Shown here piece by piece: positions 8,356-12,410 of a stretch of DNA of 32,000 nucleotides. The notes under the pieces were generated by a model. That model ran no database searches and was not told where the DNA came from. It saw only the letters and a program-made list of their open reading frames with translations. Positions within the stretch are counted from its first letter, which is position 1. The number at the start of each line of letters is the position of its first letter. Where the stretch lies: assembly GCA_964354495.1 (NCBI GenBank), contig CAYHAA010000003.1:179754-211753 (forward strand), in the 5' to 3' direction. The position numbers were made by a program, and so were the translations under genes. The stretch comes from an uncultured archaeon (GTDB taxonomy: Archaea; Asgardarchaeota; Thorarchaeia; Thorarchaeales; Thorarchaeaceae).

Positions 8356-12410
<4,055 letters not shown>

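Follow-up and report, generated by a model that had tools for sequence, protein, structure and literature searches.

How does a cell make the catalytic subunit of its RNA polymerase from a gene that is interrupted by in-frame stop codons close to its start? The question arises in a stretch of 32,000 nucleotides (nt) of Thorarchaeota (Asgard) DNA, hereafter the window (contig CAYHAA010000003.1, positions 179,754 to 211,753, of assembly GCA_964354495.1). There rpoA1, the gene for the subunit Rpo1N, carries between codons 45 and 46 a 30-nt insert, TAGAATCTGGATTTCCCAGTTTCTCTATAA (12275..12246, minus strand), with TAG as its first in-frame codon and TAA as its last. The genome (designated G000) comprises 3.3 Mb in 51 contigs and is estimated to be 97.7% complete. 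An original prediction, made from the letters of the window alone, had read the insert as a bulge-helix-bulge (BHB) intron of the kind removed from tRNAs. Our comparative analysis leads us to the same reading, and we put the probability at about 85% that 12246-12275 is an archaeal BHB intron within the coding region of the single-copy, essential rpoA1. The fit to the motif, the structure common to eight alleles and the genes for the processing enzymes are observed, and from them we infer cleavage and ligation in the cell.

The boundaries of the insert are set by homology. Exons 1 and 2 (Table 1) lie in the same frame, and all five Rpb1 Pfam domains are encoded downstream of the insert. Deleting exactly 12275-12246 yields YPID-SGIMD and matches the intron-less orthologues, in which YPI(D/E)SGIMD is unbroken in about 70 genomes, those of 22 species of the same genus and over 45 others from Thorarchaeia. 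Among species representatives, a truncated rpoA1 frame was found only in G000 and in two others, G007 and G093. Gene callers start rpoA1 at Met 12236, giving a product of 837 amino acids (aa), and public collections hold 837/836-aa and 42-45-aa products, in line with the truncation foreseen in the original prediction.

Read as RNA, the insert and its flanks form the elements of a BHB motif (Table 1). We used a scanner for the hBHBh' architecture that looks for a 4-bp central helix, a 3-nt bulge 3' of each of its strands, and an inner and an outer helix, and that places each cut after the second bulge base. Within 300 nt around the site it returned exactly one solution, the 12246-12275 intron. 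Genome-wide, 4.7e-5 of (position, length) pairs carry a motif this good or better, "as good" meaning a central helix of 4/4, an inner helix of 4/4 and an outer helix of at least 3/4. Given this rarity, and since the boundaries are fixed independently by homology, coincidence is unlikely (roughly 1e-4 including slippage). The same scanner and bulge geometry recover the introns of tRNA-Asp (29 nt) and tRNA-Met (63 nt) and three introns of 30-31 nt at the 3' end of the 16S rRNA of this genome. The original prediction had placed a stop-containing 30-nt insert in the Rpo1N frame and had drawn a 4-bp helix with 3-nt bulges, an 8-bp inner stem and an imperfect outer helix; the insert was confirmed to the base, the structure is present base for base, and the proposed cuts (12276/12275 and 12246/12245) fall exactly where intron-less orthologues join.

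Table 1. Features of the interrupted rpoA1 locus (positions in the window).
Feature	Position	Strand	Remarks
rpoA2 (Rpo1C)	8356..9711	-	Intact; downstream of rpoA1
rpoA1 exon 2	9723..12245	-	SGIMDPKLG... to stop, 840 codons, same frame as exon 1; Pfam Rpb1 domains 1-5
rpoA1 intron	12246..12275	-	30-nt BHB intron, U-AGAAUCUGG-AUUUC-CCAGUUUCU-CUAU-AA; absent from intron-less orthologues
rpoA1 exon 1	12276..12410	-	45 codons, MISGL...YPID, from ATG 12410; N-terminus ends ...YDEDGYPID
Outer exon-exon helix	CCCC 12282-12285 / GCGG 12241-12244	-	3/4 paired; wider helix 5/8 in G000, 6-8/8 in other alleles
Central helix, 5' strand AUAG	12278..12281	-	Exonic: Ile44 ATA and G of Asp45
Central helix, 3' strand CUAU	12248..12251	-	Intronic
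5' bulge AU/U	12275..12277	-	Predicted cut 12276/12275
3' bulge AA/A	12245..12247	-	Predicted cut 12246/12245
Inner hairpin h', AGAA-U-CUGG / CCAG-U-UUCU, loop AUUUC	12252..12274	-	Compensatory changes in G093, L141, P0064, L058-L060
Shine-Dalgarno-like AGGAG	12420..12424	-	10 nt upstream of exon-1 ATG; read directly, putative function
TATA-like CTTTAGATAATA	12461..12472	-	Conserved among island-type alleles (upstream of exon 1); putative promoter of the detached rpoA1
Inserted island	12411..20702		About 8.3 kb, between remnant and exon 1; 8.4 kb when counted as 12411-20822
Orphan 1228-aa open reading frame (ORF) in island	12731-16417	-	Small ORFs also in island
ABC transporter genes in island	18159-19870	+
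Native rpoA1 remnant, codons 1-40	20703..20822	-	Abuts rpoB stop, then HI-stop; 111/120 nt identical to exon 1 of sister G012
rpoB (Rpo2)	20823..24194	-	Directly upstream of rpoA1 in most relatives

An alignment of rpoA1 from related genomes, which the original prediction had proposed as a check, found the insert absent in the roughly 70 orthologues above, and yielded seven further insert alleles and covariation in the stems. The eight sequenced alleles (G000, G007, G093, L141, P0064/L050, L058, L059 and L060) are interrupted at one and the same codon boundary, and a ninth, P0044, is indicated by gene calls only. Inserts are 30 nt long in G007 (1 change versus G000), G093 (8 changes) and L141/L142/L143, 33 nt in P0064 (equal to L050/L051/L052) and 29 nt in L058, L059 and L060; they are therefore under no multiple-of-three constraint. 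The exonic AUAG strand of the central helix is kept in all eight alleles, and the helix is fully paired (4/4) in five. Both 3-nt bulges and a hairpin of 8-9 bp with a 5-nt loop are likewise kept in 8/8, and the outer exon-exon helix has between 5 and 8 of its 8 positions paired. The hairpin stems vary in sequence yet pair, in their basal part as AGAA/UUCU, GAGA with UCCC or UCUC, GAAA/UUUC, ACAGU with GCUGU or ACUGU, and AUGG/CCAU, and in their apical part as CUGG/CCAG, CUCAG/CUGAG, CAG/CUG and UCAG/CUGA. In a four-sequence alignment, a small sample of related alleles, 83% of cells were paired, compared with 34-56% when the partner strand was slid, and three pairs had changed on both sides. 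The minimum-free-energy fold of the G007 allele is a textbook hBHBh' structure. Cutting in silico after the second bulge base restores PI(D/E)-SGIMD in every one of the eight alleles, including those with 29- and 33-nt inserts.

The coding sequence around the insert also bears on the motif. The exonic codons TAC-CCY-ATA...AGC occur in 4/4 intron-bearing and 0/27 intron-less alleles (Fisher 3e-5, kinship ignored). Ile44 is encoded by ATA in 4/4 intron-bearing alleles, compared with 1 of the 27 intron-less alleles scored, and in 8/8 intron alleles overall, while Ser46 in the three 29-nt alleles is TCG, which is paired differently. Exon 1 is under protein-level constraint, with 22 nt changes but a single aa change between G000 and G007.

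Searches for the intron elsewhere returned little. No second copy of the 30-mer exists in the G000 genome with up to 6 mismatches allowed, and the exact intron core matched only G007 among GTDB representative genomes. The exact core and a degenerate pattern had no match in viral or JGI metagenome contigs, and the L058/L059 intron pattern had none in genome contigs.

We also observed that the first in-frame codon of the intron is a stop in five alleles (UAG in G000 and G007; UGA in G093, L141 and P0064) and not in the 29-nt alleles. Swapping AG for GA leaves the codon a stop, at the cost of a stem pair in G093 and P0064. The immediate stop codon may reflect selection for prompt termination on unspliced mRNA.

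In the mechanism that we propose, exonic AUAG would pair with intronic CUAU in the pre-mRNA, leaving a 3-nt bulge after each strand, with the intron hairpin and the exon-exon helix on either side. A heteromeric splicing endonuclease formed by two EndA paralogues would cut each bulge after its second base, and RtcB would ligate ...CCC AUA GAU to AGC GGC AUC... and probably circularise the 30-mer. Spliced mRNA alone would then encode full-length Rpo1N (...YPID-SGIMD...), and unspliced mRNA would stop after 45 codons. The predicted spliced junction is CCCATAGAT joined to AGCGGCATC, and the predicted junction-spanning peptide is GYPIDSGIMDPK. Genes for the enzymes are present: the EndA profile PF01974 matches twice in G000 (C7:64948 and C6:24745) and the RtcB profile PF01139 once (C1:152240), all above cut-off. 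Asgard EndA is reported to be an (alpha-beta)2 enzyme, with an L1 loop that confers a broad substrate range (PMC5829648).

Several observations weigh against splicing. The thermodynamic stability of the G000 fold is ordinary (z = 0.5 versus shuffled sequence) and its outer helix is weak (5/8 paired). The central helix is reduced to 3/4, by A.C or AxA at the outermost pair, in G007, L058 and L060, and one basal pair of the inner stem is broken in two alleles. The eight alleles share ancestry, and the p-values for the codon association therefore overstate their independence. Should translation be coupled to transcription, ribosomes could disrupt the motif ahead of its cleavage. As for RNA, the only run with related words (X19) gave two short contigs of 91-95% identity from other organisms, one of them ending 6 nt before the junction, which makes them uninformative either way.

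In the majority of relatives rpoA1 follows rpoB without a gap, its ATG abutting the rpoB stop. In G000 the order is rpoB, a remnant of rpoA1, an island and a TATA-like element, followed by the AGGAG motif and exon 1, with the intron between it and exon 2. The remnant resembles the rest of the gene in its affinity (93% identity to G012). The functional exon 1 matches G012 at 99 of 120 nt and is at most 87% identical to any native exon 1 compared, and the two 120-nt copies of exon 1, remnant and island-borne, are only about 80% identical to each other. The Ser46 codon is AGC in intron-bearers versus TCG or TCA in their sisters. By these sequence affinities, the 8.4-kb insertion that detaches rpoA1 from rpoB includes exon 1 and the intron and extends at least through the first codon of exon 2. 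Because exon 1 and the intron lie within the inserted island, the intron would have entered the G000 lineage together with foreign DNA.

The left junction of the island falls after codon 40 in G000, G007 and L141, and homologous, rearranged islands with the same junction occur in G007 and L141-L143 (ABC ATPase about 50% identical in aa). The gene calls of P0044 show an island layout and the upstream region of G093 is of island type; in P0064 rpoB lies 4 nt upstream of exon 1 with no island. In a tree of exon 2, G000 is sister to the intron-less G012 and G007 to the intron-less G024/G015. A clade of G000 and G007 was rejected (p-AU 3e-37), so that a single recent gain in a shared ancestor is unsupported. 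No integrase or recombinase was recognised among the island genes.

Four explanations other than splicing have to be set against this evidence. Archaeal RNA polymerase subunits tolerate splits, as in A'/A'' and B'/B'', and rpoA1 could likewise be a split gene in which a 45-aa peptide and a separate Rpo1N, translated by re-initiation from the internal AUG at 12236, assemble non-covalently. An in-frame Met three codons into exon 2 is present in all alleles, and purifying selection on exon 1 would equally fit a translated peptide. We nevertheless regard a split gene as unlikely, as it predicts neither a conserved BHB motif with compensatory changes and motif-completing exonic codons nor the position of the cut sites, which in eight alleles bring back the ancestral junction. 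The spacing between stop and AUG is moreover variable (37 nt in G000 versus 12 nt in L058), and inspection of the sequence in front of ATG 12236 revealed no Shine-Dalgarno-like motif. Translational recoding, whether by stop-codon readthrough or by ribosomal bypassing as in phage T4 gene 60, appears to us very improbable. The stop directly after the last sense codon and the start of a hairpin at that point superficially resemble the take-off site of gene 60, and the G000 genome has a tRNA-Sec gene. Readthrough is ruled out by the 29-nt alleles, which place exon 2 in a different frame, and by the occurrence of TAG, TAA and TGA in frame among the alleles. Bypassing would call for matched take-off and landing codons, and here GAU, GAG or GAA precedes the gap and UAA, UAG or AUU precedes exon 2.

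The island itself raises the prospect that the 30 nt are an inert leftover of recombination, for example the core of an attachment site, with no RNA processing and a cell living on N-terminally truncated Rpo1N. In G000, G007 and L141 (and, by gene calls, P0044) an island has entered at the same codon and the insert does sit at its right edge; the upstream region of G093 is likewise of island type, and the G000 and G007 inserts are identical at 29 of 30 positions although their flanks differ by about 16%. We hold this to be quite improbable, as the insert is also found where there is no island: P0064/L050-52 have rpoB directly upstream, and in L058 and L059 the 0.25-0.7 kb that separate rpoB from exon 1 contain no called genes. 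Distant alleles, furthermore, conserve structure rather than sequence, and island-borne exon 1 has diverged by 17-20% in nucleotides yet keeps its protein sequence; it is therefore translated within some useful product. An artefact of assembly, or a dead gene whose function is supplied elsewhere, was among the outcomes that, according to the original prediction, would overturn it, and neither was borne out; we give this explanation a negligible probability. A 51-contig, 97.7%-complete assembly could in principle miss a second copy, but a single rpoA1 was found in it; the 837 codons that remain of this gene are intact and encode all Rpb1 domains. In two studies besides the likely source, Logan contigs span 11800-12571 and 12037-12528 with 0 differences and 0 gaps; the identical insert in DNA from two independent studies therefore excludes an assembly artefact, and homologous inserts occur in seven other assemblies.

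Taking the insert as a BHB intron, two histories fit the data. In one, a site-specific mobile island repeatedly brings in exon 1 with its intron, and intron-only alleles are footprints of recombination between the copies of exon 1. In the other, the insertion is old and has been lost on many occasions, when DNA that lacked the island replaced it; gene conversion has meanwhile refreshed the remnant. A broader interpretation, which we offer tentatively and think has the odds against it, is that a family of islands inserts at codon 40/41 of rpoA1 in different Thorarchaeota, with the intron as its portable seam. Each island would bring a promoter, a synonymously recoded exon 1 and a BHB intron, the tRNA-splicing machinery of the host would heal the gene, and intron-only alleles would be footprints left after loss of the island.

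The largest island gene deserves separate mention. Pfam, NCBIfam and Atlas gave no match for the 1228-aa ORF, which is found at full length only beside island-borne exon 1, in G000 and G007 (82% aa identity). Its 3' part is 89% identical in nt between these two, versus 78% for host genes. By gene calls, P0044 has a 1197-aa counterpart preceding its interrupted rpoA1. A separate, 130-nt element resembling a miniature inverted-repeat transposable element lies in the rpoA1 leader region at 12538-12667. Its terminal inverted repeats are 19 nt long (GGCTTTGTGTGAAAAGTCA) and match at 18/19 positions, and 9 nt of the target are duplicated (AGACATACC). Near 20450 there is a repeat end that resembles these. 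The element is missing from an independent metagenome contig, which skips from 12528 to 12668, and from G007.

The rpoA1 intron has company in this genome. The 3' end of the 16S rRNA gene (G000:C31:12960-13262, locus L036), which was located by conserved motifs (an RF01959 profile search of the genome did not find 16S), holds at least three strict BHB introns of 30, 30 and 31 nt, and removing these three restores the consensus 16S sequence including its anti-Shine-Dalgarno end. We noted a fourth 16S insert, of 30 nt, between GUCGUA and ACAAGG, with a relaxed motif. In the window, the genes for tRNA-Lys (24366-24471, minus strand) and tRNA-Asp (24843-24946, plus strand) are about 105 nt long each owing to BHB introns of about 30 nt; ARAGORN identified them with introns allowed and reported no tRNA in the window by default. 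With its tRNA and 16S introns recovered, G000 therefore carries many BHB introns of the 30-nt class.

Relatives have further interruptions in RNA polymerase genes. A second rpoA1 BHB intron, of 31 nt, is present at L058:6885-6915 and L059:6840-6870 (GCA_053491595.1 and GCA_900174565.1), with a central helix of GUAG/CUAU(C) and an exon junction after ...APQLIVE. It is absent from G000, and gene callers split the L058 and L059 rpoA1 into three ORFs. Its presence in two related assemblies suggests that rpoA1 has been colonised repeatedly. In the P0044 contig (Logan SRR13394437, 56.9 kb) rpoA2 also appears in pieces (110 aa, then 77 aa and 312+ aa), with about 8.7 kb, including a 1295-aa ORF, between them. 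A similar island may have struck a second RNA polymerase gene here.

A genome-wide search for other mRNA introns, combining a strict BHB motif with an ORF-joining test, gave 1423 candidates, no more than the approximately 1500 of position-shuffled controls, because adjacent same-strand genes mimic the signal. Filters on codon usage and hairpins left five unconvincing gene-junction cases and dropped rpoA1 itself, which makes the method too insensitive to judge whether rpoA1 is unique. The length histogram of strict BHB hits showed no clear 30-nt peak over background, and cbf5 of G000 is uninterrupted.

If the rpoA1 intron is spliced, an Asgard archaeon needs the tRNA-splicing endonuclease and RtcB to make the catalytic subunit of its RNA polymerase, and transcription capacity is coupled to RNA-processing capacity. 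Splicing would also mean that BHB introns can persist in core essential genes, with eight alleles at one site and a second site in relatives. Automatic annotation splits or truncates such genes, and the phenomenon is probably under-counted. The island with its own first exon is a testable lead on how BHB introns reach new sites, and, should the portable-seam interpretation be true, mobile DNA would be a route by which these introns enter protein genes of the closest archaeal relatives of eukaryotes.

The original prediction knew of no such intron in an RNA polymerase gene, and our full-text literature searches found no report of one there or in Asgard mRNAs; the mRNA substrates of archaeal splicing endonuclease that they returned are only cbf5 and the 5' untranslated region (UTR) of HVO_1309. 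A 2020 paper describes cbf5 as the only additional mRNA example (PMC7714728), and protein genes go unmentioned in a 2026 preprint about the tRNA introns of Asgard archaea. The cbf5 pre-mRNA of Crenarchaeota has a BHB intron in its coding region, with splicing shown experimentally (Watanabe 2002; Yokobori 2009, PMC2738675). As with the rpoA1 intron, its distribution among related species is patchy (gain and loss), gene callers mis-annotate it, and the lineages that carry it have a heteromeric EndA of broad specificity. Unlike rpoA1, a core RNA polymerase subunit gene in Asgard/Thorarchaeota whose splicing we infer, cbf5 encodes a pseudouridine synthase, and the association with an island is a feature of rpoA1. 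The BHB intron of HVO_1309 in Haloferax volcanii, verified by circular-RNA sequencing and in vitro cleavage (PMC7714728), likewise makes an mRNA a substrate of the tRNA splicing endonuclease, but it lies in the untranslated leader and leaves the reading frame uninterrupted. With the BHB introns of archaeal tRNAs and rRNAs, the rpoA1 intron shares the hBHBh' geometry, the cut rule and the class of about 30 nt (as in tRNA-Asp and 16S of G000), whereas its host is an mRNA, in which the exonic half of the motif consists of codons constrained by protein sequence.

Two more distant systems offer parallels. In eukaryotes, HAC1/XBP1 mRNA is cut by IRE1 at two stem-loops and joined by RtcB-type ligation in a regulated stress response. 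There, too, a short structured insert is removed from a coding region without the spliceosome and ligation alters the protein made, while cutting by IRE1 and regulation by stress set HAC1/XBP1 apart. Integrative elements of archaea and bacteria, such as those that target tRNA genes, carry a copy of the end of their target gene and thereby rebuild the gene that they split. The rpoA1 island similarly leaves codons 1-40 at one end and rebuilds the full gene with its own diverged copy at the other; it differs in targeting an essential protein gene, at the 5' end, and in that the rebuilt gene needs an RNA splice. Among these systems, the rpoA1 intron would extend BHB mRNA introns to an unusual host gene, lineage and mobile-DNA context.
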